NCBI GenBank assembly: GCA_021813905.1
Contig: JAKAJH010000009.1
Span: forward strand, 7,346 to 71,345
Source: Bacteroidota bacterium
GTDB lineage: Bacteria > Bacteroidota > Ignavibacteria > UBA10030
Length of the DNA: 64,000 nt
Reading direction: 5' to 3'
The notes below the pieces were generated by a model. The model saw nothing but the letters and a program-made list of their open reading frames with translations, had not been told where the DNA came from and ran no database searches. This document shows, piece by piece, positions 13,033-50,963 of this stretch (within the stretch, counting starts at the first letter, position 1; each line of letters opens with the position of its first letter). Made by a program: the position numbers and the translations under genes.

Positions 13033-13953
13033 GTGGTACTTTGCGCTCACATGATCGATGAACCGACCATCCACGCCTTGCTGAGTCAGGCCCGGAGCTA
13101 CGCGGCGGACGAGAAGTACCTCCACGCGATCCAGGTCTATCGGCGCGTCACGCGGCTCGCCCCGCGGGTTGAGCAGGCCTGGGTGGAGCTCGCGCACGTC
13201 TATCTGCATCTGAAGCAACGGGTCCCCGCAGAGCGGGCGCTGCAGGGGGCGCTGGCGGTCGCCCGTCAACCGGCGCAGATCCTGTTCCTGCTGGGATCGC
13301 TGCACCGGGAAGCGGGGGATACCTATGAAGCGCTGAAATACCTTCGCCGGCTGCTGGAGATCGAAGCGACGTTGCCGGTCAATCTGAAGGCGCAACTGCA
13401 TTTTGACCTTGGCCTCCTCTATCGTGATCGAATGAACTCACGCGTGGCGGAATACCATTTGCGCACGGCCCACCGGTTGGATCCCAACTTTCCCCGATCG
13501 GGCGAAGCGCTTGCGGAATTGTTGCTGCGGCGCGGGGCCGCGAACGAGGCGATCCGGTTCCTGCACCGCTCGCTGAAGGCCGAACCGTACAGCTGGGAGG
13601 GGCACTATCTGCTCGGGAAAGCCCTGACCCGCAAGGGGGAGTGGGAACACGCGCTCGAAGAGTTCATCGCGTCGGTGGAAATGGATCCGGACGATCCGCG
13701 GGGATGGCATATGTGCGGCAGCACGTTGCTCGCTCTGCAGCGTCTGGACGAGAGCGAACGGTACCTGCGCAAGGCCATCGACCTCCAGCCGGCCATGACG
13801 GACGCGCTCGCGGATCTCGGCATCGTGCTGATGCGGCGCGGAACGCTCGAAGAGGCGCAGGATCTGTTCCGTCGCGCCCTGCAGCAGGTGCCCGATCATC
13901 GTACCGCCCGCGACGGCCAGCGTGAGCTTAATCGTCTGCGGAAAGCCCAATAG
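13033..13953 (+). CDS. Tetratricopeptide-repeat protein
   Basis: Repeated TPR-like helical hairpins (AWVELAHVYLHL..., EALKYLRRLLEIEA..., WEGHYLLGKALTRKGEWEHALEEF). Start may be the MIDEP codon at 13051. Confidence 0.7.
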   Translation: MVLCAHMIDEPTIHALLSQARSYAADEKYLHAIQVYRRVTRLAPRVEQAWVELAHVYLHLKQRVPAERALQGALAVARQPAQILFLLGSLHREAGDTYEALKYLRRLLEIEATLPVNLKAQLHFDLGLLYRDRMNSRVAEYHLRTAHRLDPNFPRSGEALAELLLRRGAANEAIRFLHRSLKAEPYSWEGHYLLGKALTRKGEWEHALEEFIASVEMDPDDPRGWHMCGSTLLALQRLDESERYLRKAIDLQPAMTDALADLGIVLMRRGTLEEAQDLFRRALQQVPDHRTARDGQRELNRLRKAQ

Positions 13954-13967
13954 GAGTCGATCTCACC

Positions 13968-15989
13968 ATGAAACGCCTCTTTCTGATTCTGTCCGGTGTG
14001 ATGGTACTGTCGGGAGCGACGCTTGCGCAGCGGGTGGCGATGCCGTCCGACAGCATCGTGTTCCGGGCCGACGTGGAGCGCGAGTTCGTGGAGGGGATGC
14101 GGTTCTTTCTGGCGCGTCAGTACGACAGCGCCGCTACCGTGTTTGTCAACTGCATCCGTGAGTACCCGCGGAGTCACCGCGCCACCGGGGCGTACATCAT
14201 GGGTGCGAAAGCCTTGTATGAGACCGGCCGGTACCGCGACGCGGTCCGCCTCCTCAAGGATCTGATGGACATCTATCCATATTCGCAGTACGTGGACGAC
14301 GCGCATTACACGCTGGGGCTGGTCTATTTCCGGCTTCGCCGGTACGAGGATGCCGCCTCGGAACTCCTCACCGCTCGGCAGACGGCGGACGACCCGAAGC
14401 TGATGACCCGAGCAGAGCGACTGCTGGGTGATATTGCCGCAGAGCACCTCAGCATCGCCGAGTTGCAGGTTCTGGCGGGCGCCGCGCAGAATGATGTGAT
14501 GAAGGCGCTCCTCAATCTGCGCCTGGCCGAACAGATCTACCGGACCGGCGATGCACGGGCGGCGGAGGAAGTCGCCCGTCCGATCACCACCATGAGTCCG
14601 GCGATCCCCTATGTCGGACAAGCGCTCGATCTTCTGCAACGCATCCGCAGCGGCGGGGTGGTGCGCGTCGGTGTCGTCCTCCCTCTGATGCTGAAGTCCG
14701 AAATGCCTGTCTACCGTGCGGTGGGACTGGACTTTGCGAACGGTATCCAGCTCGCGGTTGATGAGTACAACGCGACAGCCGAAACGAAAGTGAATCTCGA
14801 TATCCGCGATACCGAGCGTGATCCGGCAAAAGCCGCGCAGGTCGTTGCGGAGCTGTGCCGGGATGACAAGGTTACCGCCATCCTCGGGCCGGTGCTCAGC
14901 AACGAAGTGTTCGCCAGCGCGGGGATCGCGAACGAGCGCGGCGTACCCCTGATCACTCCGACCGCCACCTCGAACGGCATTGCGGCGATCGGTCCGTATA
15001 TCTTCCAGGCGAATCCGGATTTCACAATGCGCGGAAAAGCGGCGGCGGCGTACGCCGTGACCGATCTGAACGCCAAGCGGGTAGCCGTCGTTTCGCCCTC
15101 TGATGCCGTGGGTACCGCGGTGTCGAATGCGTTCATTGCGGAGGCGACCCGGCGCGGAGCGACCATTGTGGATGTCGAATGGTATCCGGCCGGTTCCACC
15201 GACATCCGGAGCGAGCTGATGAGCTTGCGCGAGAAGGCGCTCGCCGAGGCGGATACGACGCTCATCGACTTCGGCGGCAAGATGAAACAGGCTGATATTA
15301 CCAGGATCCTTGCGGCGGGGGCGGATCGCCACGTCGTGGACTCGCTGATGGAGCGCGGTGTTCCGATCGACGTCCGGCAGCTGTTCGGTGACAACGGCAG
15401 AGTGATCGCCGACTCGCTCGGTTTCCCGACACGAACGATCATCGTGAAACGGGACAGCCTGGAGCTTCCGGTGAACACGATCGACGTGATCTTCTGCCCC
15501 ATCGCCAGTTCAGACGAGATCGCGGTGGTCAGCACGCAGATGCGCTGGACGAACTTCCACGCTCTGGTGCTGGGCACGGGGGACTGGAATGATCTGAACA
15601 GCCTGGATGAGAACCGTTCGTACACCGACGGGGTGACATTCGTGACGGACGCCTACTACGATCCGAACAGTCAGCCGTTCCGGGAGTTCAAGCTCCGGTA
15701 CGAACGCGCATTCAAAGGACGTCCCCCGACGCTGAATACGCTGTACGGATACGACGCCTGCGCCATGCTGCTGCAGACGATCGGACACGGGGCGGTGAAC
15801 AGGAATCAGCTCGCCTCCGCGCTGGCGGCGGTACGCGGATACACAGGATTGCACACGAAGATTTCCTTCGGCCCCGGACGCGTGAATTCCTGTCTGACGG
15901 TTCTGCAATACCGCGCCCGTCAGATCTGGCGAGTGGGAGAAGTGGATCTGACGGCGCCGGAAGAGACGCAGCAACCGACAACTCCATAA
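13968..15989 (+). CDS. Secreted fusion protein: N-terminal TPR/YbgF-like domain plus C-terminal type I periplasmic-binding-protein fold (Leu/Ile/Val-binding-like)
   Basis: Signal peptide MKRLFLILSGVMVLSGATLAQ. TPR segment (YIMGAKALYETGRYRDAVRLL, HYTLGLVYFRLRRYEDAASEL). The PBP1 region begins VRVGVVLPLMLKS and continues through ILGPVLSNEVFASAGIANERGVPLITPTATSNGIA. Confidence 0.7.
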   Translation: MKRLFLILSGVMVLSGATLAQRVAMPSDSIVFRADVEREFVEGMRFFLARQYDSAATVFVNCIREYPRSHRATGAYIMGAKALYETGRYRDAVRLLKDLMDIYPYSQYVDDAHYTLGLVYFRLRRYEDAASELLTARQTADDPKLMTRAERLLGDIAAEHLSIAELQVLAGAAQNDVMKALLNLRLAEQIYRTGDARAAEEVARPITTMSPAIPYVGQALDLLQRIRSGGVVRVGVVLPLMLKSEMPVYRAVGLDFANGIQLAVDEYNATAETKVNLDIRDTERDPAKAAQVVAELCRDDKVTAILGPVLSNEVFASAGIANERGVPLITPTATSNGIAAIGPYIFQANPDFTMRGKAAAAYAVTDLNAKRVAVVSPSDAVGTAVSNAFIAEATRRGATIVDVEWYPAGSTDIRSELMSLREKALAEADTTLIDFGGKMKQADITRILAAGADRHVVDSLMERGVPIDVRQLFGDNGRVIADSLGFPTRTIIVKRDSLELPVNTIDVIFCPIASSDEIAVVSTQMRWTNFHALVLGTGDWNDLNSLDENRSYTDGVTFVTDAYYDPNSQPFREFKLRYERAFKGRPPTLNTLYGYDACAMLLQTIGHGAVNRNQLASALAAVRGYTGLHTKISFGPGRVNSCLTVLQYRARQIWRVGEVDLTAPEETQQPTTP

Positions 15990-37620: not shown

Positions 37621-39993
37621 GTGAGGATGATGCGGTATCTTCTTGGGTCAATTCTCGTTGTTCTGCTGACAGGTTGTAATTCCCACCAGTCTCTCCGTTC
37701 CGAGACCGATCCGGGTTCATCACCCCCCAGCCGTCCGGTGGCGGTGCATGCCGCGCATCCGGCTGATCCATCGGCGTCCGCGCCGCAGCGGTCCATTGCG
37801 GCCACGGCTGCGTCATCCGAGACCACCTTCGTGTCGATTGATACCGCGGGATTCAAACCCCGGAGCGGGCTTGTGCAGTCCGTCGCACCTTCTCCCGACG
37901 ATTCAGACTATGTTGCCGTTCGTCTTGAGGATGTCCGTCAGCACTATCTGCTGGCGTTGGCTTCGCAGGAGGCAGGCGACACCGTCTCGGCGGAGCAGGA
38001 ATTCGATGTGGCGCTGCAGGAACTCAGCGATCTCGGTGACCTCGACGGAGCGGATTCGACAAGAGATTTCCTCGAACTCAGCAAGAGTATCGTCGAGGAT
38101 TATCAACGATATATCGCGGAGATCGACAGCCTGAGTCCATATGCATCGTTGGCGGCGTTGCAGGAGAAGCTGAATCAAGCGGTGGATGAGGGGGATACGA
38201 CGGGGTTGGTTGTCCCGCACGATGTGATCACGGGAACAGGCGTGCCGCTGCCATTCAATGAATACGTGGAGCGGGCGCTCGCCTTCTTCATGGGCCGCGG
38301 TCGGCCGTTCATGGAGCGATGGCTGTATCTGTCCGGACGCTATTTTCCGATGATGAAACGCATCTTCCATGAGGAGGGCGTTCCGCCGGAGCTTGTAATC
38401 CTCTCCATGCCGGAAAGCGGCCTGCGGAACGATGCCCGCTCCTGGGCGCGTGCGGTCGGACTTTGGCAGTTTATGAAAGGAACCGGCTCCTTGTACGGAC
38501 TGCGCGTCAACTGGTGGTACGACGAACGGCGGGATTTTGAGAAAGCGACCCGCGCGGCGGCCCGGCATCTGAAGGATCTGTATCAGGAATTGGGAGACTG
38601 GAATCTGGTTCTCGGTGCGTACAATGCCGGTCCCGGTCGCATCTTCCGGGCGATCCGACGGAGCGGCTCCACGGACTTCTGGGAAATGCGGAAATACCTG
38701 CCGCGGCAGACGCGCAACTACGTGCCCCAGTTCATCGCCGTTGCCCGCATCGTGCTGAATCCGCGTGAGCATGGATTCACCGACTACGCGCTGGCCGATT
38801 CGCTGGTGTACGATGTCGTCGAGATCAACGATTGCGTCGATCTCCGGATCCTTGCCCGATGCGCCGGCACGACCGTCGACAGCCTGCAGGATCTGAATCC
38901 GGAACTTCTTCGCTGGTGCACGCCGCCGGGCGTGACAGGCTATCGCTTGCGCATTCCGCCGGGCACGCGTGACTCATTTGCTGTGCGGTACGCCCAGGTG
39001 CCCCCGCAGCAGCGCAAGGATTGGGCGATCCATGCCGTGCGTCGGGGCGAGACGCTTTCGTCGATCGCACGTCGGTATGACGTCAGTACATCCCTTCTGA
39101 TGGATCTCAATAATATCCGCAGTGCACGGCGATTGTCCATCGGTGCCACGCTGGCGATTCCTATTCCGCGGGACGCCGCTGGAAACGGCGAAAAGGTGCC
39201 ATTCGACTATTCACGCTCCGCGCGACATGTCGATTTCGGCGCGGTGCGCGCCTATGTTGCGAAGCGGGACGAACGCCGGGAGCGATCGGAGGCCTCACGG
39301 AAGGCCGCGAAGCCGCCGAAGGATAAGGAACGTCTCGTATACCACGTGAAGCGCGGTGACACGATCGGACATATTGCCGAGTGGTACGGCGTCCGCGCGA
39401 GCGACATCCGAAACTGGAATGATATCGCGTACGGGAGGTACATCTACGCCGGGCAGGCGCTGACGGTGTGGGTGGACGAATCGGTGGCGTCACGTCTTCG
39501 CGGTGTGGACAAGATGTCGTTCACGAACAAGCAGGAGCTCGGAAACAAAGAGGTGGTGGAAGCGGCCGCTCCCGGTCCGGTGAAGCACGGCAGTCGTGCG
39601 TTTTCGAACGAATGGCTCCAGCACGAAGTGAAACCGGGCGAATCGCTCGATCGGATCGCAAAGATGTATGATGTGAGCGTTGCCGATCTGAAGCGCTGGA
39701 ACAACCTCCGGAGCTCGCGGATCAACGCCGGTCAGTCGCTGGACATCTACGATACGCCGGAAGAACGGGTAAAGGTCGTTCCACAGCATTCCGGCAGATT
39801 GGGGGAGCAGCATCCGGCGCCCGTCGCAAAGCGGAGCGGGATGTTCGCGCGCACGCACAAGGTGAAACGTGGTGAAACTCTGTATGATATCGCACGTCGG
39901 TATGGCATTGAAATGAAACAGCTTAAGTCGCACAACGGATTGCGCGGCAACAAGATCGTCGTCGGACAGATCCTGCGGATCCCGACGCCGTGA
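37621..39993 (+). CDS. mltD: Membrane-bound lytic murein transglycosylase D-like lipoprotein with four LysM domains
   Basis: Lipobox LLTGC. SLT catalytic domain ([21 protein letters not shown]...AYNAGPGRI). Four LysM repeats ([64 protein letters not shown]). Confidence 0.9.
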
Positions 39994-40199: not shown

Positions 40200-42251
40200 A
40201 TGTCTCTGAAATTCTCCCTGCCCGCGACGGCACTGTGGCTCGTCTGCACCCTTTCGGCTCAGGATGTGCCTCAACTCCCGAAGCGGTCGACTGACGACAA
40301 TACAAAATACACCACGGTCGGCAACATCTCGATCACGGTTACGAACTTTGGCGTGATCGGCAACGGATTCAAGCCGTTCCCCGGTCCACCGTCATTTCAG
40401 TACCCCCGCGGTTCCGGCATCGAACATCTGTTCGTCGGCGGTCTGTGGGTCGGCGCCTCCACACCGACCGGGATTCATGTGACCACCGGCGCGGTGGACA
40501 TTTCGTCGCTCCGGAGCGGTGTATCGGAGGGATTCGAATTTACGACGGGCGTTGATTCGCGGGTCATCGAACGCTCGTCGCTCCTCGACAACCGGTTCTA
40601 CAGTCCGTCGGCGATCAGTCACCAGGACTTTCTGGCCGACTTTACCGACACCAATACGACCAACCCGAACCAGAACAACGAACCGATTCCGAACCACGTG
40701 CCGCTCGGCATCAACGTGCACATGGAATCGTACGCGTTCAACTTCGCGTTCGCGGACAATTTTGTGATCTTCAACTATTGGATCAAGAACGTCAGCGGCG
40801 CCTCGCTCGACAGCGTGTATGTCTCACTGTGGGGCGACATCGTGGTGCGGAACACCAATATCACTCCGCCCACCGTCGGCTCGCCTTTTTACAGCCACGG
40901 GGCGCTGGGATACATCGACACGCTCAATCTCGCCTACGCATACGACTATGACGGCGACGGCGGACTGGCGGACAGTTACGGCGCGTTCAAATTCCTCGGT
41001 TCATCGCCGTACCGGAACACCACGACGTATCAGGTGTGGCAGTTCCGGAATTCGAGCGATCCGACGTATTTCTCTCCCGCGACCGATATTGACAAGTACA
41101 GCAAAATGACGAACGGGCTCCTGCCCAGTCAGGTCACTTCTATCCCGAAACCGAGCAACTTTATGACGTTGCTCTCAGTCGGCCCGTTTTCGCACATCGC
41201 GCCGGGCGATTCGGTGAACGTGGTCTTTGCGCTGATGGCGGCGAAAATGGTGAACTGGAGTGTTCCGAAGCCGGAGGGTCCCGACATCGCGAGCAACCGC
41301 ACGAATCTGAACTTAGCGTCGTCGTGGGCTCAGCGCACATATAACGGTGAAGATCGGAACGGCAACGGGGTGCAGGATTCAAATGAGGTATGGACGGACA
41401 ACGGACGTCCGAAGCGCTACTTCCTGCCGGCTCCACCGGCGGCGCCGCATGTGAAGGTCGTGCCGAATGACAAATCCGTCGAGATCTACTGGGATGATGT
41501 GTCCGAGCGATCCGTGGATCCGATCACAAACCTGAAGGATTTTGAAGGGTATCGCATCTACGGCACGAATGCCGGATTCGACCTGACGGCGTCGCAGAAT
41601 ATCCTCGCGAATCTGGTGATGTTGGGCGAATACGATCGCGCCGATGACGACATCGGATACAATACGGGCTTCGGCGGCATTCGCCTGGCACAGGCGGTGC
41701 AATTTCCGCCCGATACCACGCACTACGTGTATCGGTTCGAGGTGCCGCATGTGCTCAACGGGTGGCAGTACGGTTTTGCCGTGACCGCTTTTGACTCCGG
41801 GGATGCGAGCACGAATCTGCAAAGTCTGGAAAGCAGCAAGCTTCAAACGCTTCAACGGGTGCTTCCCGGCACGCCTCCCGCGAAGGACGCCTCGGTGCAG
41901 CCGGGCGTGTATCCGAATCCGTACTATGCGCACGCGTACTGGGATGGCGGCGTGGAGCGCCAGCGGAAGCTGTATTTCTACAACATTCCGGCGCATGCCG
42001 AGATCCGGGTGTACACGCTGGCGGGCGATCTCGTGGATGTGTTCGAGCATGACGCGGCGACGTACAATGCATCGGATATCCAGTGGTTCCAGACCTACGC
42101 CGACGGCACGCAGCAGCTGGCCGGTGGCGAGCACGCCTGGGATCTGATTACGAAGAATGATCAGGCCGTCGCGACGGGGCTGTATCTGTTTACCGTCAAG
42201 AATCTCGATACGGGCAATATGCAGCGTGGCAAGTTCCTTGTGATCAAGTAG
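40200..42251 (+). CDS. Large secreted hypothetical protein with a divergent T9SS-CTD-like C-terminal domain
   Basis: Signal peptide MSLKFSLPATALWLVCTLSAQ. No catalytic motif recognized. The last ~110 aa (GVYPNPYYAHAYWDG...KLYFYNIPAHAEIRVYTLAGDLVDVFEH...GEHAWDL...ATGLYLFTVKN...GKFLVIK) follow the spacing and consensus of T9SS sorting domains. Confidence 0.55.
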   Translation: MSLKFSLPATALWLVCTLSAQDVPQLPKRSTDDNTKYTTVGNISITVTNFGVIGNGFKPFPGPPSFQYPRGSGIEHLFVGGLWVGASTPTGIHVTTGAVDISSLRSGVSEGFEFTTGVDSRVIERSSLLDNRFYSPSAISHQDFLADFTDTNTTNPNQNNEPIPNHVPLGINVHMESYAFNFAFADNFVIFNYWIKNVSGASLDSVYVSLWGDIVVRNTNITPPTVGSPFYSHGALGYIDTLNLAYAYDYDGDGGLADSYGAFKFLGSSPYRNTTTYQVWQFRNSSDPTYFSPATDIDKYSKMTNGLLPSQVTSIPKPSNFMTLLSVGPFSHIAPGDSVNVVFALMAAKMVNWSVPKPEGPDIASNRTNLNLASSWAQRTYNGEDRNGNGVQDSNEVWTDNGRPKRYFLPAPPAAPHVKVVPNDKSVEIYWDDVSERSVDPITNLKDFEGYRIYGTNAGFDLTASQNILANLVMLGEYDRADDDIGYNTGFGGIRLAQAVQFPPDTTHYVYRFEVPHVLNGWQYGFAVTAFDSGDASTNLQSLESSKLQTLQRVLPGTPPAKDASVQPGVYPNPYYAHAYWDGGVERQRKLYFYNIPAHAEIRVYTLAGDLVDVFEHDAATYNASDIQWFQTYADGTQQLAGGEHAWDLITKNDQAVATGLYLFTVKNLDTGNMQRGKFLVIK

Positions 42252-42285: not shown

Positions 42286-44628
42286 ATGAAACATCGATGG
42301 CTCCAGTTTGCGGTAGCGGTTCTGGTGCTCGCGGGTCTGTCGGTGCCGGCGTCTGCGCAGACGATCGGTCACCCGGCGACGATTCCGCAGCTTCAGACTG
42401 TTCCGATGGATTCACTCTATGCCCTTGACACTCTGCAGGCGGCATCGGCAGGAAAGTACAAGGATAAGTCGCCGTACTGGAACGGCTCCGATTCGAAAGC
42501 GGACACCGTGATCGTGACCGGTGTCGTGATCGTGAAGCCGCGCATTCTGACGTATACGCTGGCGCGCTACAACATCTTCATCCAGGACACGACGACCGGT
42601 CAGCTGTGGGCAGGTCTGAACGTCCTGACGAATGACACATCGACGACCGCCCAGGGTACCGGCATCACGGCGCTCGATAGCGGCATGGTTGTCCGGCTGA
42701 CGGGTCGCGTTACGGAATACGGCAGCCAGAACAACAGCTTGACCGAAATGTTCATGTACAACGTCGGCTTCTTCGAGTCCGTGGTGACGGCGGAAATCCT
42801 GAGCGTCGGCGGCAACCGTCCGAACCCGGTCCCGGTGACGGTGGATAGTTTCGCGGTCGGTACCAAGCCGATGCCGTCGCGCGGAGAGAAGTACGAAGGG
42901 ATGTATGTGACGATTCCGAATGTCACGGTCATCTCCGTCGATGTTTCTTCCGGTCGGTTCACCTTTGCGGACTCGGCGGGAAACCAGATGACGATGTATG
43001 ACGGTTCGGGTTGGTACACATATCGCGGACACAAGATCACCGGTTCGAAGTACTCGGCGCCTCCCGTCGGCACGAAGCTGAAGTACATCCGTGGCGTCGT
43101 CATCGTGCAGACGAAGAGCAACACCTGCGGCGACTATGAAGTCATGCCGTTGTATCCGGGACCGCGTGAGCTTGGAAAAGCGACCTCCTATCCGGGTGAT
43201 GTCGTGATCGATAAGTTTGCCCCGTCGATCACCACGATCCGCCGCAATCCGACACCGCCGAAGTCCACGGACAACGTGATCGTCACGTTCCAGGCGAAGG
43301 ACCTGAACACGAACGGGAATGTGGACAGTGCCTTTGTCGCGGTGCAAAAAGGCCTGAGCGGCGCATGGGTGAAGACGAAGGTGGCGACTCCGTCCTTTGT
43401 TGGCGCGGACACGCTGTACTCCTTCACGGTGGGAACGACACCGGCGGACAGCATCGTCAGTTACTACGTCGAGGCATACTCGGGCGGCATCTACGGCGCA
43501 TCACCGGACCCGGCCATTCCGTACTACTACGTGGTCCGGGATAACGGATACTCCATCTACGACGTGCAATACACGCCGTACAGTAACGGTCTCCCTGGCA
43601 TGCAGTACGACACGCTGACGGTGAAGGGCGTGGTCGTGGCGGATACGTCGGACATCAAAGAGATCCCGAAAAGCGGTGCGCAGGCAAATCGGCCGTCGCT
43701 CTGGATTGCATCCGCTCCTGGAAAGTGGAACGGAGTCTGCGTCTGGGGCGCCAGCGCTTCGGTAGGCGTCGATACGCTGCAGAAGGGCGACAGTGTCTCC
43801 GTGCGCGGTGTCGTGTATGACTACAACTCGCGAACGGTGCTGAAGGTCGTCTCCTGCACGCTGATCCAGCGCGGCGTGCCGGTCCCCGGTCCTGCGACGA
43901 TGAGCATCTCCGGAAAGGGATCGGTGAGCTATCAGATCAGCAATCCTCCGGTGAACGGCGATCCGATCTTCGAGGCCTGGGAAGGCGTGCTCGTTCGCAT
44001 CAACAATCCGTATCTCGTGGTTCGCAATGCGGATGACCTTACGAACGGCAGCAGCTCCTGCTTCGGCGAGTTCCTGATCAGCTCGAGTTCGTATCTCAGC
44101 AATCCGTACGGACTGCGCGTGGATGATAACGGCATCAACAACTTCTACGCGGACACGAATTCGTACTACGCAACAACGAAGTACAACTCGGATCATCCGC
44201 TCACGCCCGGTCTGAAGACCACGCTGATCCCGATCGGGTCAAAGCTGACGTTCCTCCAGGGTATTCTGGATTACTCATACAGCAACTACAAGCTCGAGCC
44301 GCGGACGAATGCGGACTTCGGCACGATCACCAGCGTGGTCCTGCAGGATCCCATGGCGATCGCCCGGACGTTCGAGCTCAGCCAGAACTACCCGAATCCC
44401 TTCAACCCCTCGACGGAGATCCGCTACAGCGTTCCGATGTCCGGCCGGGTATCGCTGAAGGTGTTCAACCTGCTCGGCCAGGTGGTCGAGACGCTTCTCG
44501 ATCGTGACATGGTGGCCGGTTCATACGTCGTGCGGTTCGACGCGTCCCGACTTGCCACCGGCGTGTATTTCTATCAGCTCCGCGCCGGCGATGTGGTCAT
44601 GACGAAGAAGATGGTTCTGATGAAGTAA
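42286..44628 (+). CDS. Large secreted multi-module protein with canonical T9SS type A C-terminal sorting domain
   Basis: Signal peptide MKHRWLQFAVAVLVLAGLSVPASAQ. The body has repeated beta-rich modules (VTGVVIVKP..., VKGVVVADTSD..., VRGVVYDYNSRTVLKV...). The C-terminus NYPNPFNPSTEIRYSVPMSGRVSLKVFNLLGQVVETLLDRDMVAGSYVVRFDASRLATGVYFYQLRAGDVVMTKKMVLMK matches the Por/T9SS sorting domain consensus. Confidence 0.8.
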   Translation: MKHRWLQFAVAVLVLAGLSVPASAQTIGHPATIPQLQTVPMDSLYALDTLQAASAGKYKDKSPYWNGSDSKADTVIVTGVVIVKPRILTYTLARYNIFIQDTTTGQLWAGLNVLTNDTSTTAQGTGITALDSGMVVRLTGRVTEYGSQNNSLTEMFMYNVGFFESVVTAEILSVGGNRPNPVPVTVDSFAVGTKPMPSRGEKYEGMYVTIPNVTVISVDVSSGRFTFADSAGNQMTMYDGSGWYTYRGHKITGSKYSAPPVGTKLKYIRGVVIVQTKSNTCGDYEVMPLYPGPRELGKATSYPGDVVIDKFAPSITTIRRNPTPPKSTDNVIVTFQAKDLNTNGNVDSAFVAVQKGLSGAWVKTKVATPSFVGADTLYSFTVGTTPADSIVSYYVEAYSGGIYGASPDPAIPYYYVVRDNGYSIYDVQYTPYSNGLPGMQYDTLTVKGVVVADTSDIKEIPKSGAQANRPSLWIASAPGKWNGVCVWGASASVGVDTLQKGDSVSVRGVVYDYNSRTVLKVVSCTLIQRGVPVPGPATMSISGKGSVSYQISNPPVNGDPIFEAWEGVLVRINNPYLVVRNADDLTNGSSSCFGEFLISSSSYLSNPYGLRVDDNGINNFYADTNSYYATTKYNSDHPLTPGLKTTLIPIGSKLTFLQGILDYSYSNYKLEPRTNADFGTITSVVLQDPMAIARTFELSQNYPNPFNPSTEIRYSVPMSGRVSLKVFNLLGQVVETLLDRDMVAGSYVVRFDASRLATGVYFYQLRAGDVVMTKKMVLMK

Positions 44629-44641
44629 TTGTTCACCCCGA

Positions 44642-44672
44642 GGGAGGAGAAGGGCCTGTCCCTTCTCCTCCC
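44642..44672 (+). terminator. Perfect 13-bp GC-rich hairpin immediately after the T9SS-cargo gene (terminator/attenuator or RNA-processing stem)
   Basis: GGGAGGAGAAGGG (44642-44654), loop CCTGT, then CCCTTCTCCTCCC (44660-44672). Followed by CGGATATTTCAGG, which is only a weak U-tract. Confidence 0.45.
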
Positions 44673-44693
44673 CGGATATTTCAGGATACTCTC

Positions 44694-46076
44694 GTGCGGT
44701 TCCTCTCGTCACTCGCGATCCTCATCGTCCTTCTTGTCAGCGGATGCTCGGAGCATTTCCCGAATCAGCCGCTCGGCAACCTTCCGCCGGAGACATTCCT
44801 GGCGCTGCGTCCCGACAGCACGCTGCGCCGGACGGCCAGCCAGCAGGATATTCACTGGTGGGGCGAGGATCCGGACGGATTCGTTGCCGGCTATTACTTT
44901 TCATTCGACAGCACGCACTGGACGTTCACGACGGCGAATGACAGCCTCTTCGGTCTCAAGCTGAATACGACCGATACCACATACTCGTTCTTTGTCAAGG
45001 CGGTGGACAACGAAGGAGCCGAGGATCCGACTCCCGCGTCGCTCCGGTACCCGATCATGAATACACCGCCGACGGTCAGCTTCGTCCTGAAATCCGATGT
45101 GCCCGACACGACGTATCCGGTTGCCAGCTTCCAGTGGGTGGGACTTGATATCGACGGGGATGAGACCATCACGAGCTTCTGGTACGCCCTCGACGATACC
45201 TCCAATCCGAACAACTGGAAGAGCGTTCCGGGATACGCGCGCAGCGTGACGTTGTACAAAGCCGACGGTCTGGTGGAAGGCGATCACACCTTCTATCTCC
45301 GCGCGCGCGATGTGGCCGGTGCCTGGAGCAAGACAATCCAGATGCCCGATACGGTGAAGCGGACGTGGCATGTGCGCGAGCCGAAGGGCGCCTTCCTGAT
45401 CATCGACGATTACCAGCCGGCCGATGCCGCCGCCGGATACTACGCGACGATGTTCGACACGCTGACGGTCAACGGACGGCATCTTGGCAGTCAGGATGTG
45501 TGGGATATCAAAAAGGGTGCGTCCCCGACGAAGCGCGGTGATCTTGTCCCGGCGCTTATCAATCCGACGTTCATCGAAACCCTGAAACTGTTCAAGTATG
45601 TGTTCTGGTATGCGGATAACAACCCGAGCCTCGAAATCGCGCAGGCGTCTCTGGGCGCGTTTACACGCGCCGGCGGGAAGGTTCTGTTCTCCAGCTCGTT
45701 CCCGGAGCTGAGCAGCGGACAGGGCGGCGTCGGCGATTTCGCACCGATCGATAATACCGAGCCGTCGTATTTTACCACGATCCTGATGTCGGGGGACACG
45801 CTCCAGGCGGTGGATCCGATCTATCCCACGCTGGTACGGGACGCCAATCCCACGATCTATCTCTTTCCACGCGGACTTCTGCCGAAGGTCAATGCACGCG
45901 TGATCTATCAGATGCAGTCCTCATCCCGATGGAGCGGGCAGCCCGTGATGGGCGTGCAGGACGGTGATTCTCCGAGCTTTGTACTGATGGCAGTGCTGCT
46001 CCACCGGTTCGGTCCTCCGGCGAGCGCGGCGGAGTTCTTCCGCACGGTATTCGGGAAGGAGTTTGGCGCGCAATGA
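44694..46076 (+). CDS. Hypothetical lipoprotein (460 aa)
   Basis: Lipobox LLVSGC. No recognizable catalytic motif. ATGA overlap with the downstream TonB-dependent-receptor-like gene. Confidence 0.6.
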   Translation: MRFLSSLAILIVLLVSGCSEHFPNQPLGNLPPETFLALRPDSTLRRTASQQDIHWWGEDPDGFVAGYYFSFDSTHWTFTTANDSLFGLKLNTTDTTYSFFVKAVDNEGAEDPTPASLRYPIMNTPPTVSFVLKSDVPDTTYPVASFQWVGLDIDGDETITSFWYALDDTSNPNNWKSVPGYARSVTLYKADGLVEGDHTFYLRARDVAGAWSKTIQMPDTVKRTWHVREPKGAFLIIDDYQPADAAAGYYATMFDTLTVNGRHLGSQDVWDIKKGASPTKRGDLVPALINPTFIETLKLFKYVFWYADNNPSLEIAQASLGAFTRAGGKVLFSSSFPELSSGQGGVGDFAPIDNTEPSYFTTILMSGDTLQAVDPIYPTLVRDANPTIYLFPRGLLPKVNARVIYQMQSSSRWSGQPVMGVQDGDSPSFVLMAVLLHRFGPPASAAEFFRTVFGKEFGAQ

Positions 46077-48883
46077 CCCGGAGAATCGGCAGAACGCTCC
46101 TCCTGGTGCTCGCGCTGGCGTTCATGATGCCGGCACTGTCGGCGCAGGAAAAAGGCAGCATCAAAGGACTTGTGAAAGACGCCAAGACCAAGGAAGGTCT
46201 TCCGGTCGTCAACGTCAAAGTGAAGGGGACGTACTATGGCGCTGTGACGGACATGGACGGCAATTACATCATTGCGAACGTCAATCCCGGCAGCTACGTG
46301 GTCGAGTTCACGCTTCTCGGCTATACGGCCGTTCAAGTGACGGACGTGCGCGTCCAGGCGGGCAAGTCGACGGAGCTGAATCAGAACCTCTCCGAGACAG
46401 TGCTCTCGCTCGGACAGGAAGTCGTCGTGGTCGGCGAGAAACCGCTGTTGAACGTGGAAGAAACCTCGAGCAAGCGCTCGGTGACCGCGGATGACCTCAA
46501 GGCCACCGCCGTCGTAAACGTGAAGGATGTGGTGGGTCAGCAGGTGGGCGTCGTCGAAGCCGATAACGAGGTGCATATCCGCGGCGGTCGTGCGAGCGAA
46601 AATGCATACTTGCTTGACGGGATCTCGGTGCAGGATCCGTTGGCAGGCACGGGCTTCGGGCTCCAACTCAGCGCGGATGCCGTCCAGCAGATCGAGGTGA
46701 TCACGGGCGGATACAATGCGGAGTATGGACAGGCAACGTCGGGCGTCGTGAACGTGCAATTGAAGGACGGATCCGACCGGTTCGAGGGAAGCGTCGGGGT
46801 GAAGCGGGATAACCTGGGCATCTTCCCGGAAACCTTCAAGCCCTTCAACTCGGAGAGCTACGAGGGATCGCTCAGCGGTCCAATTCCAGTTTCGGCGATC
46901 ACCGATCTTGTGGGTCTCGGCGATATCGGCACCATGAGCTTCTTCACGAGCGCCTATGCGGGCTTTACGGACGGCTTCATGGGCAAGACCGCGCATCGGC
47001 TGAATTCATCGACATTCTACGGGACGCGGTTCACCCCTCGCGAAGAGAACAATCTCTTCTTCCTCGGGAAAGTGACGTGGAAGATCACGCCGCTGGTTCG
47101 CCTGGCATATTCCTACACGCATTCGGTGGCGATCAACCAGAATTCCCAGTCATTGCAGACCAACCTGGAATACGTCGAGCCCAGTCCCGGATTTCAGTAC
47201 GAGTTCGAAAACATCCTCGACAACGCAAACACGTACACGCACAACAACCAGATTCATACGCTGTCGTTGACGCACACGCTGTCGAACTCCATGTTCTATG
47301 AGCTGCGGCTGTCGCACTTCTTCACGAATCTCCGCGCGGATGCAAACGGAACGCCATACAACCAGTACCGCGAGCCGAAGGACATCGTCACGTTCCCGCT
47401 CTCGTATTACAATCTTGGCCACGACACGGTCGGCGTGATTCCGGGCGACGGTTTCTACGATTTCGGCAATGCGTTCACGTGGCACGATCACTTCGTGGCC
47501 GAGAATACGGTGAAGTTCGATCTGACAAAGAACTTCTCCGACAAGAATAAGTTCAAGACCGGTGTCGAGGCGACGTTCCAGGAGATGCAGAACGTCGATA
47601 TCTATGAGCCGTGGATCGGGACACTCGGACTGAACAACGACATCTATCACGTCTACCCGGCGTTCGGTGCGCTCTACGCACAGGATAACATCACGTTCAG
47701 CGGCATGATCCTGAACTTCGGCCTGCGGTTCGATTACTGGTTCCCGGGCAAGTATGTGGATGATGCGGTGAACAATCCGGCGGTCATCACCATCCCCGAT
47801 CAGGTGCGGCAGCACTATCTTGATCATACCTATACGTTGTTCGGGCGCCACTGGAAGGGCCGCCTCAGCCCGCGCCTCGGCATCTCGCATCCGGTCTCGG
47901 ACAATCAGATGCTGTATTTCTCGTACGGCCATTTTTCAAAGCGGCCGAAGCCTCAATTTCTCTATGCGAAGCTCAGTCCGAGCTCGGCCCAATCGACCTT
48001 CCAGAAGTTCGGCAATCCGGATCTGAATCCGGAGACGACCGTGGCCTATGAGCTCGGCCTCCAGACGCAGTTCACGAATGACGACGTGCTCAGCGTGACG
48101 GTGTACTACAAGGACATCTTTGATTACGTGTCGACACGCACGGCCCGGATCACCTCGGCCCGACTTGCCAGTACGAATTACGTCACGTACGTGAACCAGG
48201 ACTACGCGCGCTCGCGCGGTGTCGAGGTCGAATACCGGAAGCGAATCGGCCGCTGGTTCCGGGGGACGGCCTCCGGCTCGTATTCAATCACGACGGGCAA
48301 GAGCTCCTCGGCCGATCAGGGACTGCTCATCGCGCGCGGGCTGGAAGATGAGTCGGTGAAAGAGAATTACGTGGTTTGGGATCGTCCGCTCCAGTTCACG
48401 GTCACGTCAACGGTGACGGTGGAGAAGGGGAAAGGGCTGTTCGGCTTTGGCAAGAACATCCTGGACAACCTTTCGGTCTACGCACGGGCGTTCTATGAAT
48501 CCGGCAAGCGGTATACGCCGTACATCTACGACGGCGTGCTGACGAGCAACGGCCGGCCTGACTACATTCAGGACCGGAATAACCTGCTGGGCGGCATCGG
48601 TGAAAATTGGTTCTGGATCGACATGAACATCGAGAAGTACTTCGATGTGGCCGGTCTGGAATTCACCTTCTCGGTCCAGGTGAAGAACATCCTGAACAAC
48701 AGGAACTCCACGATTATCAATCCGGTGACCGGTCGAGCCTATGAGTACGGCGATCCCACGCCCACCAACTGGAACGATCCGCTCTATCCGTCATTGCAGG
48801 CTCCGGTGTCTCCATTTCCGTACAATCCCGCGCGCTATCTCGCGCCGCGGGAGATGATCCTTGGACTTTCGGTGAAATTCTGA
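46073..48883 (+). CDS. TonB-dependent-receptor-like outer-membrane protein with N-terminal carboxypeptidase-regulatory-like domain
   Basis: Signal peptide. CarboxypepD_reg-like segment (GSIKGLVKDAKTKEGLPVVNVKVKG...TDMDGNYIIANVNPGSYVVEFTLLGY). Plug region (NVEETSSKRSVTADDLKA...HIRGGRASENAYLLDGISVQDPL). Long beta-barrel ending in F (LGLSVKF). Confidence 0.85.
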   Translation: MTRRIGRTLLLVLALAFMMPALSAQEKGSIKGLVKDAKTKEGLPVVNVKVKGTYYGAVTDMDGNYIIANVNPGSYVVEFTLLGYTAVQVTDVRVQAGKSTELNQNLSETVLSLGQEVVVVGEKPLLNVEETSSKRSVTADDLKATAVVNVKDVVGQQVGVVEADNEVHIRGGRASENAYLLDGISVQDPLAGTGFGLQLSADAVQQIEVITGGYNAEYGQATSGVVNVQLKDGSDRFEGSVGVKRDNLGIFPETFKPFNSESYEGSLSGPIPVSAITDLVGLGDIGTMSFFTSAYAGFTDGFMGKTAHRLNSSTFYGTRFTPREENNLFFLGKVTWKITPLVRLAYSYTHSVAINQNSQSLQTNLEYVEPSPGFQYEFENILDNANTYTHNNQIHTLSLTHTLSNSMFYELRLSHFFTNLRADANGTPYNQYREPKDIVTFPLSYYNLGHDTVGVIPGDGFYDFGNAFTWHDHFVAENTVKFDLTKNFSDKNKFKTGVEATFQEMQNVDIYEPWIGTLGLNNDIYHVYPAFGALYAQDNITFSGMILNFGLRFDYWFPGKYVDDAVNNPAVITIPDQVRQHYLDHTYTLFGRHWKGRLSPRLGISHPVSDNQMLYFSYGHFSKRPKPQFLYAKLSPSSAQSTFQKFGNPDLNPETTVAYELGLQTQFTNDDVLSVTVYYKDIFDYVSTRTARITSARLASTNYVTYVNQDYARSRGVEVEYRKRIGRWFRGTASGSYSITTGKSSSADQGLLIARGLEDESVKENYVVWDRPLQFTVTSTVTVEKGKGLFGFGKNILDNLSVYARAFYESGKRYTPYIYDGVLTSNGRPDYIQDRNNLLGGIGENWFWIDMNIEKYFDVAGLEFTFSVQVKNILNNRNSTIINPVTGRAYEYGDPTPTNWNDPLYPSLQAPVSPFPYNPARYLAPREMILGLSVKF

Positions 48884-49869
48884 TGCGCCGCACACTTCTC
48901 ATCGTATTCATTGTCGCGCTGATCGTCGGATGTGTCCCGGCGCAGGCGCAGATCGTTCCTGTTCTCGGCGCGCAGCGGGCCGGTACCTCGACCGCCCAGT
49001 TCCTCAAGATCGCTGTTGGTGCACGGGCGGCGGCAATGGGAGAAAGCTTTGTGGCCGTGGCGAATGACGCGTCGGCGCTCTTCTGGAACCCGGCGGGCAT
49101 CACCCAGTTCACGCAGACGGAGGTGATCCTGGCGCACACGACATGGGTGGTGGATGTGCAGCACGAATTTGCCGGCCTGGTGTATCACCTCACTCCCGAC
49201 GATGCCGTCGGCGTGTCGGTGACATCCGTGCACACCGATGACATGCAGGTGACAACGGAGCTTCAGCCCCGGGGGACAGGAGACTACTTCAGCTACGGCG
49301 ACCTCGCTATCGGAGTCACGTACGGCCGCCGCATGACGAATCAGTTCAGCTTCGGAGCGACCGTTCGATATCTTGAAGAGACGATGGCCTCGCTGAAGAT
49401 GCGCGGGGTGGTGCTCGATTTCGGAACGTATTACTGGACCGGATTAGGAACGTCCCGGTTCTCGGCGGTGGTGACGAATTTCGGCAATCAGATCGGACCG
49501 ACCGGCACGGCACCGCAGGTCGGAGGAGGTACCGTCACGTCGTTCCAGCAGTACCCGCCGCCGACGATGTTCAAATTCGGTTTCGCGCTCGATCCGATCA
49601 AAGATGAGTCCAACATTCTGACGACATCGATCCAGTTGAATCACCCCAACGACAACTCCGAGAACGTCGGCCTCGGTGTTGAATACGGATGGATGAATGC
49701 GTTCTTCCTGCGGGGGGGATATAAACTGAATGTCGAGGAACAGGCGCTTTCCTTCGGTGCCGGCGTCGCGGCTTCACTGGGCATCGCCCATGTGGCCGTC
49801 GACTACGCCTATGCCTCGTTTACGAATCTCGGTCCGACCCATCGGATCTCAATGCTGGTGACGTTGTGA
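48883..49869 (+). CDS. PorV/PorQ-like (FadL-like) outer-membrane beta-barrel protein
   Basis: Signal peptide. N-terminal motif GARAAAMGESFVAVANDASALFWNPAGI, as I recall for the PorV/PorQ family. Alternating beta-strand pattern. C-terminal hydrophobic/aromatic end. Start overlaps the upstream stop by 1 nt (TGATG). Confidence 0.55.
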   Translation: MRRTLLIVFIVALIVGCVPAQAQIVPVLGAQRAGTSTAQFLKIAVGARAAAMGESFVAVANDASALFWNPAGITQFTQTEVILAHTTWVVDVQHEFAGLVYHLTPDDAVGVSVTSVHTDDMQVTTELQPRGTGDYFSYGDLAIGVTYGRRMTNQFSFGATVRYLEETMASLKMRGVVLDFGTYYWTGLGTSRFSAVVTNFGNQIGPTGTAPQVGGGTVTSFQQYPPPTMFKFGFALDPIKDESNILTTSIQLNHPNDNSENVGLGVEYGWMNAFFLRGGYKLNVEEQALSFGAGVAASLGIAHVAVDYAYASFTNLGPTHRISMLVTL

Positions 49870-50963
49870 GACAATTCGCGCCCCTTGCTCTGCTGCTTTT
49901 GATGCTGGCCGCCTGCCAGGAATATCGCTTCCCTGTGGAAACGCTGCCTCAGGGCGGTCAACGGACCGGCCAGATCGGCGACACGCTCTATGTTCAGCAA
50001 TATCCGAATTGGGAGGGATTCAACCAACCCCAGGCCATTGCTGTTGGATTTGAACCCCTGCTCTATGTCGCCGACACGGACAACGACCGGGTCGTCATGC
50101 TCGATCTGGCCGGACGCGTCATCGGCTATTCACCGATGATCAAGCATCCGGTGGCAATCGCGGAGGATCGGAGACTGCAGCTGCTCGTCTGCGCCGAATT
50201 CGATACGCTTCTGGCGGGACAGAGCCATCCGACCACCTTCGGAGCGATCTATCGGATTGACCTTGTGGCCACGGGCCATGACATCACGACCGCCACTCCG
50301 GTCCGCGTGTTCACGGAGTTGAGTGACTCGAGCCGGCGGTACAGCGCCGTCGCGACGATGTACGACAATTCATACTACGTGACGCGGGTAGGGCCGAAGA
50401 ACGCTTTGACGAGCTTTGACCGGGATAACGCCATTCTGCTGTTTGCGAAGAATGATTCGCTCATCACCCCGGTGACGGCAAACTTCTCTCCGGATGGCAC
50501 CGGCCTCCTGTCGATCCATGCCGCCACCGGCATCGCCACGATGCCGACGGGCAAGAGCGTGGAATTCGTCTTTTCCCAGGTGGAATCGAACTCCGGGATC
50601 ACTCCGCTGTACAAAGTACAATGGATCCGGCTCGTCTCGGAAGGACAGACGACCAACTACCTGTCGAAGTTCTATCCGAGCGTGGATGGCGATATAGATC
50701 TGCTGCGCATCAACCGGTTCACCCATCCGACGGGCGTCACGCTTGATCCGTCCGGGAATCTCTACGTGACCGATGCAGGAACCGACAGTCTCTATCGCTT
50801 CACGCCGCGGGGTGTGGAAGCGTACTCCTTCGGTGGGACCGGATCGGGGGAACGGCAGTTCCGGCAACCGGCCGGGGTGGCGTACTTCGACAAAACAGTG
50901 TATGTGGCGGACAAGGGAAACAACCGCATTGTTCGCTTCAAACTTTCGACAGATCTGCAGTGA
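49866..50963 (+). CDS. NHL-repeat beta-propeller lipoprotein
   Basis: Lipobox LLMLAAC. NHL repeats LYVADTDNDRVVMLD, LYVTDAGTDSLYRFT, VYVADKGNNRIVRFK. GTG start in a GTGA overlap with the upstream gene. Confidence 0.75.
   Translation: MRQFAPLALLLLMLAACQEYRFPVETLPQGGQRTGQIGDTLYVQQYPNWEGFNQPQAIAVGFEPLLYVADTDNDRVVMLDLAGRVIGYSPMIKHPVAIAEDRRLQLLVCAEFDTLLAGQSHPTTFGAIYRIDLVATGHDITTATPVRVFTELSDSSRRYSAVATMYDNSYYVTRVGPKNALTSFDRDNAILLFAKNDSLITPVTANFSPDGTGLLSIHAATGIATMPTGKSVEFVFSQVESNSGITPLYKVQWIRLVSEGQTTNYLSKFYPSVDGDIDLLRINRFTHPTGVTLDPSGNLYVTDAGTDSLYRFTPRGVEAYSFGGTGSGERQFRQPAGVAYFDKTVYVADKGNNRIVRFKLSTDLQ

Follow-up and report, generated by a model that had tools for sequence, protein, structure and literature searches.

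A predicted tandem OB-fold protein with a type IX sorting domain in a conserved gene cluster with a TonB-dependent receptor

The gene considered here lies at positions 42286..44628 (+) of a 64,000-nucleotide stretch of bacterial DNA, hereafter the window, and is the second of six tightly packed genes on the same strand, the last four of which overlap or abut. It begins with ATG and encodes a protein of 780 amino acids (aa); the coordinates and length assigned to it in a preliminary description of this DNA were exact. Its neighbors encode a 683-aa secreted protein (U683), a 460-aa lipoprotein (Lipo460), a 936-aa TonB-dependent receptor (TBDR936), an outer-membrane barrel of the PorV/PorQ family and an NHL-repeat lipoprotein. 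The 780-aa protein is a new arrangement of known parts, namely a type IX secretion system (T9SS) cargo together with oligonucleotide/oligosaccharide-binding (OB) folds of the DUF5689/YhcR type. Most of the functional information is carried by the gene cluster around it, which the preliminary description left out. Tentatively, the protein is predicted to act at the cell surface as a receptor without catalytic activity, capturing extracellular nucleic acid and supplying it to a TonB-dependent importer.

The 780-aa protein and its sorting signals

The open reading frame (ORF) at 42286..44628 (+) is, on the evidence of its relatives, a real gene because 149 homologues are found at E<=1e-5, the majority of them full length (745-840 aa), and because an identical protein is recorded in GCA_027400495.1 and on a 582-kb ENA contig. 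Long antisense ORFs of 231-311 aa lie over real genes in this region, at 42412-43347 (-; 311 aa), 43501-44196 (-) and 41379-42134 (-). Such ORFs are expected in a window of about 60% G+C and are composition artefacts rather than genes.

Both ends of the protein carry export signals. A Sec signal peptide read from the translation occupies aa 1-25 (42286..42360, +; MKHRWLQFAVAVLVLAGLSVPASA, followed by Q), and by eye it has a basic n-region, a hydrophobic core and a cleavage site of the signal peptidase I (SPI) type between ASA and Q (...PASA, then Q). In the AlphaFold model this segment is a helix with a low-confidence stretch at aa 19-24. At the other end, a T9SS type A C-terminal sorting domain (CTD) together with the stop codon covers 44356..44628 (+; aa 691-780). 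Residues 702-777 score 35.6 bits against PF18962 (Por_Secre_tail; cut-off 27) and 40.2 bits against TIGR04183 (cut-off 23), the match ending three residues short of the stop codon, and the modeled domain is a seven-strand sandwich with its strands between aa 697 and 778. The canonical type A domain proposed in the preliminary description therefore passes both family cut-offs, the comparison that had been named beforehand as able to refute it. No T9SS core genes were seen within the window. From these signals, the protein would be a T9SS cargo, and its location is presumed to be the cell surface.

Domain anatomy and internal duplication

An AlphaFold2 model of the protein, built on a 59-sequence alignment, reached a mean pLDDT of 87.9. 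Reading from the N-terminus, the model places the signal peptide, a short helical segment, a domain A, a domain B, an immunoglobulin (Ig)-like domain, a second pair A' and B', and the sorting domain. Domain A (42469..42819, +; aa 62-178) is an OB fold with the topology strand-strand-strand-helix-strand-strand and has a weak Pfam tRNA_anti-codon match at aa 129-147. Domain B (42820..43185, +; aa 179-300) is OB-like by its model topology. The Ig-like domain (43186..43545, +; aa 301-420) is a beta-sandwich of nine strands in the model; its family profile weakly matches the Ig-like domain of the Porphyromonas gingivalis peptidylarginine deiminase (PPAD; 4ytg, E 1e-3), and weak matches to the carbohydrate-binding module family CBM_56 fall in this region in 14 of the 59 family members. 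Domain A' (43546..43890, +; aa 421-535), with a pLDDT of 88.5 in a fragment model, is an OB fold where the Pfam OB-fold matches of homologues fall, and the OB-like domain B' (43891..44355, +; aa 536-690) forms with it a unit of the DUF5689 type.

The relationship between the two halves is not visible at the level of single sequences. BLASTP of the protein against itself returned no self-similarity, and a profile-profile comparison of sub-alignments was needed to see the duplication: HHalign relates aa 62-300 to aa 421-690 at 99.6% probability (E 4e-24). Taken singly, A matches A' with an E-value of 3.2e-13 and B matches B' with an E-value of 7.4e-15, while A, B, the Ig-like domain and the sorting domain show no mutual resemblance by HHalign. 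Since the matches pair A with A' and B with B', and A and B are unrelated, the apparent repeat modules are, on these comparisons, one duplication of a two-domain A+B unit with the Ig-like domain between the copies. The repeated beta-rich modules of the preliminary description are thus true repeats, present as two copies of a two-domain unit and not as a long array. The V-x-G-V-V core with conserved Tyr and Trp reported there was also recovered. In its strict form, V-x-G-[VI]-[VI], the motif occurs three times (aa 77, 446 and 506) and marks strands of the A-type fold. Across the 59-sequence family alignment there are 26 invariant columns, and 31 aromatic columns, Tyr and Trp columns among them, are conserved at >=85%.

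Identity of the A+B module

Four independent lines of comparison identify the A+B unit as a tandem OB unit such as secreted nucleases contain: the ExeM/NucH family model, the Pfam and DUF5689 models, Foldseek, and a census of domains among relatives. In the first of these, the NCBIfam model for ExeM/NucH (NF033681) matches aa 478-678 with an E-value of 1.7e-12. At 47 bits the match stays below the cut-off of 300, and only profile positions 30-216 of 546 are aligned; these correspond to the OB region and leave the endonuclease/exonuclease/phosphatase (EEP) catalytic domain unmatched. Pfam and NCBIfam searches found no nuclease or phosphatase catalytic domain in the protein and no Exo_endo_phos match, so the confinement of the ExeM/NucH match to the OB region bears out the earlier statement that no such domain follows the modules.

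A protein that shares a module with catalytic relatives and has no catalytic domain could be a degenerate nuclease, that is, a former enzyme of the ExeM/NucH or phospholipase D (PLD) type with no function of its own. This is very improbable, as conservation at full length over 149 homologues, together with the invariant columns noted above, argues for selection, and the gene keeps a fixed place in a cluster conserved across several classes. No sign of relaxed selection or of frequent truncation was seen in the family.

The second line comes from Pfam. Its OB-fold nucleic-acid-binding model is matched by 45 of the 59 family members (best E 4e-8), and DUF5689 (PF18942) is matched at E<=0.05 by three of the 59 only. 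One homologue, P0119, reaches 40.8 bits for DUF5689 (cut-off 28.6) over profile positions 23-216 of 217, and the stretch concerned aligns with aa 441-677 of the window protein. Superfamily-level homology to DUF5689 is assigned at the level of sequence because of this homologue, of matches in eight of 48 distant relatives, and of a match in a PLD-domain protein described below.

For the third line, the fragment aa 425-692 was modeled separately (pLDDT 88.5, pTM 0.87) and compared with the PDB by Foldseek. The 50 best matches listed are all nucleic-acid-binding OB proteins. Leading them are two-OB proteins aligned across both domains, namely the Deinococcus/Thermus single-stranded DNA-binding protein (SSB), the telomere end-binding protein TEBP-alpha and POT1, with E-values from 4e-5 to 8e-4; next come single-OB SSB, PriB, RPA, Stn1 and the anticodon-binding domains of AspRS and LysRS, with target-normalized TM-scores of 0.5-0.68. 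This outcome answers the structural check proposed in the preliminary description in favor of its OB-fold suggestion. The whole chain was uninformative in the same search, returning only generic multi-beta-sandwich proteins such as complement C3 and receptors at TM-scores of 0.1-0.15. When the module was used as a profile or sequence query against the PDB, nothing significant was found.

Finally, the module profile detects 1592 relatives at E<=1e-3 among 1.84 billion representative proteins. In a Pfam census of 48 diverse module relatives, a T9SS sorting domain was present in 26, an OB fold in 12, a lamin-tail domain (LTD) in eight and DUF5689 in eight, with an occasional EEP nuclease. The preliminary description had likened the modules to OB-fold or lamin-tail-like modules of extracellular nucleases; the OB part of that comparison is upheld by the ExeM/NucH, Pfam and Foldseek results. 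A lamin-tail identity was rejected for the modules of the window protein, which have no LTD match and an OB fold.

The gene cluster in the window

U683 is encoded at 40200..42251 (+), directly upstream of the OB gene in every locus examined. This secreted protein has a middle region resembling Fn3 and ends in a T9SS-type CTD that is divergent and contains insertions, one of about 30 residues interrupting the sorting-type fold; HHalign relates this C-terminus to the type A CTD profile at 92% (E 6.6e-7). No Pfam, NCBIfam or PDB match was found for the protein. It is conserved from Ignavibacteria to Balneolales at 38-71% identity, its invariant motifs include IEH, SHQD, VVRN and DFEGY(R/K)(I/V)(Y/F), and by these sequence criteria it is a candidate for a new family.

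Right after the stop codon of the OB gene, a stem-loop spans 44638..44675 (+; GGGAGGAGAAGGG-cctgt-CCCTTCTCCTCCC) with 13 G+C-rich pairs and three outer pairs, a folding energy of -32.4 kcal/mol and a z-score of -3.2. Hairpins of unrelated sequence occupy the same position in nine of 13 related loci that were folded (L006, L010, L013, L036 and L089-L093), which makes 10 of 14 when the window is counted, and some of them are followed by U-runs. The hairpin probably separates the pair formed by U683 and the OB gene from the four genes for the lipoprotein, receptor, PorV-family barrel and NHL protein, either as a transcript boundary or as an attenuator. A scan of the cluster for sigma-70 promoters and terminators found sites no more numerous than in shuffled sequence.

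The second group opens with Lipo460 (44694..46076, +), a lipoprotein with the lipobox LVSGC whose stop codon overlaps the receptor start by 4 nt. It has no family match in Pfam or NCBIfam and no significant PDB match, shows no similarity to SusD or to OB/DUF5689 proteins, and is syntenic in all clusters. Its gene sits where the 'lid' lipoprotein of a transporter would be expected. As conserved proteins that match no known family, U683 and Lipo460 would be priorities for structural work. TBDR936 (46073..48883, +) matches PF13715/PF13620 (CarboxypepD_reg), PF07715 (plug), PF00593 and PF14905, and its N-terminus matches the SusC/RagA profile.

The next gene (48883..49869, +) encodes a 14-strand-type barrel of the PorV/PorQ family, scoring 216.7 bits against NF033709 (cut-off 90), with weak Toluene_X matches. 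Orthology to PorV or PorQ was rejected, as the equivalog scores of 88.4 bits for PorV (cut-off 250) and 92.1 bits for PorQ (cut-off 220) both fall below their cut-offs, and the barrel is therefore called a paralogue. Its gene is translationally coupled to that of the TonB-dependent receptor, a pairing kept in every cluster examined. The last gene (49866..50963, +) encodes a lipoprotein with an NHL-repeat beta-propeller (PF01436) and the lipobox LAAC followed by QE, and homologues also have a lipobox.

Immediately upstream of the cluster is a gene for a lytic transglycosylase that resembles MltD and has four LysM domains (window 37621-39993). Such a gene holds the same upstream position in two distant relatives (L004 4937-7546 and L007 5391-7628), an association that may be coincidental.

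Conservation of the cluster across genomes

The six-gene order recurs in about 15 distinct genomes. Loci were found in metagenome-assembled genomes (MAGs) of Ignavibacteria and Melioribacteraceae (L006-L009, L090-L095), in a 'Cytophagia' MAG (L010) where the NHL gene was not detected, in a Rhodothermales MAG (L012) where the cluster is partial and cut by the contig end, and in Rhodohalobacter sp. 8-1 and two Balneola MAGs (L013, L033, L036). In two Balneolales loci that were examined, the gene at the OB position is diverged and matches the module profile with E-values of 6e-7 and 7e-5. One of these (L013) encodes an OB domain with a CTD, and the other (L036) an LTD with a CTD; the LTD of the Balneola positional homologue scores 46.1 bits (cut-off 34.3).

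The cluster consists of two sub-modules, because in one genome it is split into U683 with the OB protein (L004) and the lipoprotein-receptor-PorV-NHL group (L088), and because in L089 the two halves occur in reversed order. The hairpin after the OB stop codon is in line with this division.

Conservation is uneven among the members. It is highest for the receptor, which reaches 60-72% identity in Ignavibacteria and 36-41% in the loci of Balneolales and of the 'Cytophagia' MAG. One of the least conserved members is the OB protein: in comparisons that give about 60% for the receptor and 31-47% for the lipoprotein, its identity is 29-33%, a pattern that fits an exposed binding protein.

This pattern also bears on whether the cluster imports a ligand at all. 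The proteins might instead form a structural surface layer or adhesin, or an accessory to outer-membrane or T9SS biogenesis, with the receptor-like barrel and the PorV paralogue serving only as anchors. In favor of such a role, the cluster occurs near-universally, and three of its members, the receptor, the PorV paralogue and U683, show strong conservation throughout a class. FadL-type barrels are also known structural partners of surface proteins in the β-barrel assembly machinery (BAM) complex of Bacteroidota (PMC12578637), and the whole-chain model does resemble multi-domain beta-sandwich surface proteins, if generically only. A structural or biogenesis role is nevertheless quite improbable: the receptor keeps its plug domain and TonB-dependent barrel, the secreted hydrolases recruited to the cluster point to substrate processing, and the OB protein evolves faster than would be expected of a core machine part.

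Phosphodiesterases at the cluster edge

Seven of the roughly 15 genomes encode phosphodiesterases with T9SS sorting domains at the edge of the cluster, and the enzymes come from four unrelated families. Five loci have a PLDc_2 protein with two HKD motifs after the NHL gene (L008 20373-22193; L009 18658-21939; L091 14881-17187; L092 14933-17227; L094 14868-17177). A PF04185 phosphoesterase with a CTD (237.5 bits) lies directly upstream of the lipoprotein gene in L088, and L089 has a Metallophos protein with a CTD, a second Metallophos protein and an EEP protein with a CTD.

The PLD enzymes have the architecture (LTD)-DUF5689 module-Fn3-PLD-T9SS sorting domain. Their N-terminal module is related by HHalign to aa 421-690 of the window protein at 99.2% (E 1.2e-19) and to aa 62-300 at 98.1%. 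The L009 enzyme, the PLD-domain protein referred to above, scores 34.1 bits for DUF5689 (cut-off 28.6) and has an LTD-like sequence motif at its N-terminus; its DUF5689 segment returned only eight fragments when used as a query. Since the A+B module is shared with these enzymes, it occurs both fused to a phosphodiesterase and, in the 780-aa protein, duplicated and alone.

One further gene near a cluster, a small one in an Ignavibacteria locus (L006 19104-19415; 103 aa), encodes a GIY-YIG nuclease domain and lies downstream of the NHL gene at a distance of about 450 nt.

Relation to known systems

Two characterized loci offer the closest comparison. In the ddbABCDEF DNA-utilization locus of Bacteroides thetaiotaomicron, DdbD is a DUF5689 protein. 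It has been proposed to bind DNA as the partner of the TonB-dependent transporter DdbC, and a resemblance to the HIN domain of p202, which has two OB folds, is reported for it (PMC12478041). In Riemerella anatipestifer, the DUF5689 protein RA0C_RS04920 is needed for natural transformation, as is the adjacent outer-membrane protein RA0C_RS04915, which has a carboxypeptidase-regulatory domain (PMC8459023). Common to these loci and the window cluster is a tandem-OB module of the DUF5689 superfamily, presumably surface-exposed in the window protein, near an outer-membrane TonB-dependent-type protein with a carboxypeptidase-regulatory-like N-terminus. In relatives of the window cluster, secreted phosphodiesterases that may be nucleases are encoded in the locus as well. 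The window receptor is likened to DdbC and RA0C_RS04915 solely by the combination of a CarboxypepD_reg domain with TonB-dependent architecture. The two-OB resemblance is shared as well, DdbD resembling the p202 HIN domain and the window fragment model resembling SSB, POT1 and TEBP; p202/HIN is not among the 50 Foldseek matches listed for the fragment.

The window cluster also differs from these loci. In the window protein the module is duplicated, has no PF18942 score and is exported with an SPI signal and a type A CTD by the T9SS, rather than lipid-anchored through a signal peptidase II (SPII) signal. Its gene is not adjacent to that of the receptor, as Lipo460 intervenes. Further components of the window cluster are a PorV-family barrel, an NHL lipoprotein and, as a second T9SS cargo, U683, and its host belongs to another, Ignavibacteria-like class. 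By analogy, then, the cluster resembles a version, built on the T9SS, of the DNA loci that combine DUF5689 with a transporter. One 341-aa protein from a 1.6-kb metagenome contig (P0395) has Pfam matches to both DUF5689 and CarboxypepD_reg, as a fusion or as two merged neighbors, and echoes this pairing of binder and transporter.

Among extracellular nucleases, the YhcR-type OB region of Shewanella ExeM and Vibrio Xds is essential in that its deletion abolishes nuclease activity, while the LTD is dispensable (PMC6085458, PMC6746945). The window protein shares this region with ExeM, NucH and Xds, as the profile 30-216 match to aa 478-678 indicates, and the module has an LTD beside it in the positional homologue from Balneola and an LTD-like motif in the PLD protein of L009. 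Unlike ExeM, NucH and Xds, the window protein has neither an EEP domain nor an LTD, and it ends in a T9SS CTD instead of a GlyGly-CTERM or other anchor. In the PLD enzymes at the cluster edge, the domain order of ExeM and Xds is mirrored, the catalytic domain being PLD rather than EEP.

With T9SS type A cargo such as the P. gingivalis PPAD and gingipains and Flavobacterium johnsoniae NucA, the window protein has in common a Sec signal, an Ig-like domain, which resembles that of PPAD, and a seven-strand sorting domain. It differs in having a non-catalytic passenger and a gene clustered with its own PorV/PorQ-family paralogue. As for the two-OB single-stranded DNA binders, Deinococcus/Thermus SSB, POT1 and TEBP-alpha are the best structural matches of A'+B' and are aligned across both domains. 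Identity is 10-13%, the whole-fragment TM-scores are 0.21-0.30 because the two domains are oriented differently, and the binders are cytoplasmic or nuclear proteins, so the resemblance is one of fold only.

Predicted role in nucleic acid capture

Taken together, the sorting domain, the module, the modeled folds, the conserved cluster, the phosphodiesterases at its edge in relatives and the analogy with the ddb and Riemerella loci suggest a receptor that captures nucleic acid at the surface, a reading to which we give slightly less than an even chance. The Sec pathway would carry the 780-aa protein into the periplasm, and the type A CTD would take it across the outer membrane to be displayed on, or released from, the cell surface. 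There it would bind an extracellular phosphodiester polymer, most probably DNA or RNA, and hand this polymer, or pieces of it, to the TonB-dependent receptor for import, if the two proteins are coupled as their clustering suggests. The secreted phosphodiesterases encoded at the cluster edge in relatives would do the cutting. More speculatively, the PorV paralogue may retain the cargo CTD beside the receptor, given that PorV binds cargo CTDs through its loops (PMC10994853) and that barrels of the FadL type can serve surface proteins as structural partners (PMC12578637).

Several results weigh against a nucleic acid ligand. Pfam and NCBIfam scans found no recognizable nuclease in the cluster of the window itself, and PF18942 does not match the 780-aa protein at E<=1. 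With net charges of -2, +4, +2 and -5, the four OB modules are close to neutral; they have few conserved Lys or Arg and many conserved aromatic and acidic residues, and no basic charge signature of DNA binding was found in them. The phosphodiesterase families at the edge (PLD, PF04185, EEP and Metallophos) also include phospholipases, and the receptor, at 60-72% identity, is conserved so highly as to hint at a core function and not at an accessory system for nutrients.

Near-neutral modules rich in aromatics fit glycan binding as well as they fit stacking on single-stranded DNA. The protein could accordingly be a glycan-binding surface protein of a system resembling a polysaccharide utilization locus (PUL), where the OB and Ig/CBM-like domains hold polysaccharide for a SusC-like receptor. 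The SusC/RagA match of the receptor N-terminus would agree with this, as would the weak CBM_56 and SusE-like matches in the Ig-like region of family members. This explanation is unlikely: the CBM and SusE matches are all sub-threshold, the detectable relatives of the module are nuclease-associated, and glycoside hydrolases, polysaccharide lyases and SusD are absent inside all of the roughly 15 clusters, where phosphodiesterases recur.

The composition of the edge families raises a different ligand. In general scavenging of organic phosphate or lipid, the OB protein would bind phospholipid head groups or a teichoic-acid-like polymer, and a FadL/PorV-type barrel would handle the hydrophobic products. 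PLD, PF04185 (phospholipase C/acid phosphatase), EEP and Metallophos proteins all include phospholipases or phosphatases, and the PorV-family barrel is a relative of FadL, as its weak Toluene_X matches indicate. Against this, the barrel scores as PorV/PorQ family and not as FadL, and the OB/DUF5689 module (with LTD) on the PLD enzymes is typical of secreted nucleases (PMC6085458), which together leave lipid or phosphate scavenging improbable as well.

Returning to capture of nucleic acid, a bolder and doubtful extension is that the cluster encodes an undescribed TonB-dependent uptake machine. Its capturing 'lid' would be formed by two T9SS cargo proteins, the double-OB protein and U683, in place of a lipoprotein of the SusD/DdbD type, and a dedicated PorV-family barrel would keep them beside the transporter by retaining their CTDs. 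Ignavibacteria, Balneolales and Rhodothermales could have such a machine as their nucleic acid uptake system, nutritional or for competence, and the ddb/Riemerella system of Bacteroidota might even descend from it.

Loci that combine DUF5689 and a TonB-dependent transporter for DNA are a recent subject, reported for transformation in Riemerella in 2021 and for DNA utilization by gut Bacteroidales in 2025. The window suggests a structurally different relative of these loci that is widespread in environmental lineages of the Fibrobacterota-Chlorobiota-Bacteroidota (FCB) superphylum (Ignavibacteria, Balneolales, Rhodothermales) and is distinguished by T9SS export, a duplicated binder, a PorV paralogue of its own and varied secreted phosphodiesterases. 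If true, this would bear on the scavenging of extracellular nucleic acid or phosphorus by abundant sediment and soil bacteria, and PorV paralogues would gain a role outside the secretion pathway itself.

Host and window context

The housekeeping genes of the window comprise the C-terminus of ileS, rluD, guaA, ftsK, gcvT, holA, the pyruvate dehydrogenase (PDH) E1/E2 genes and nadB. Two proteins rich in tetratricopeptide repeats (TPR), at 13033-13953 and 13968-15989, give weak PorW/SprE matches of 24-30 bits (cut-off 250), which reflect generic TPR similarity and give no reason to infer a T9SS component.

Named relatives of the OB protein and the receptor come from Ignavibacteria, Ignavibacteriales, Melioribacteraceae and MAGs labeled 'Bacteroidota bacterium', with more distant copies of the cluster in Balneolales and Rhodothermales. 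By these affinities, the host is most likely an Ignavibacteria-like member of the FCB superphylum. Placement in the FCB had been proposed in the preliminary description and agrees with all named relatives being of FCB type; the closest of them, the Ignavibacteria, were missing from the lineages it listed (Rhodothermota, Gemmatimonadota and Kapabacteria).

A scan of a genome collection with the family alignment was keyed on the motif N[YF]PNPFNP and returned mostly unrelated T9SS cargo, about eight of 80 loci being useful. Among the contigs with such sorting domains, three belong to MAGs labeled Acidobacteria, Actinomycetota and Heimdallarchaeota (L051, L067, L075), and these are most likely mis-binned FCB contigs.

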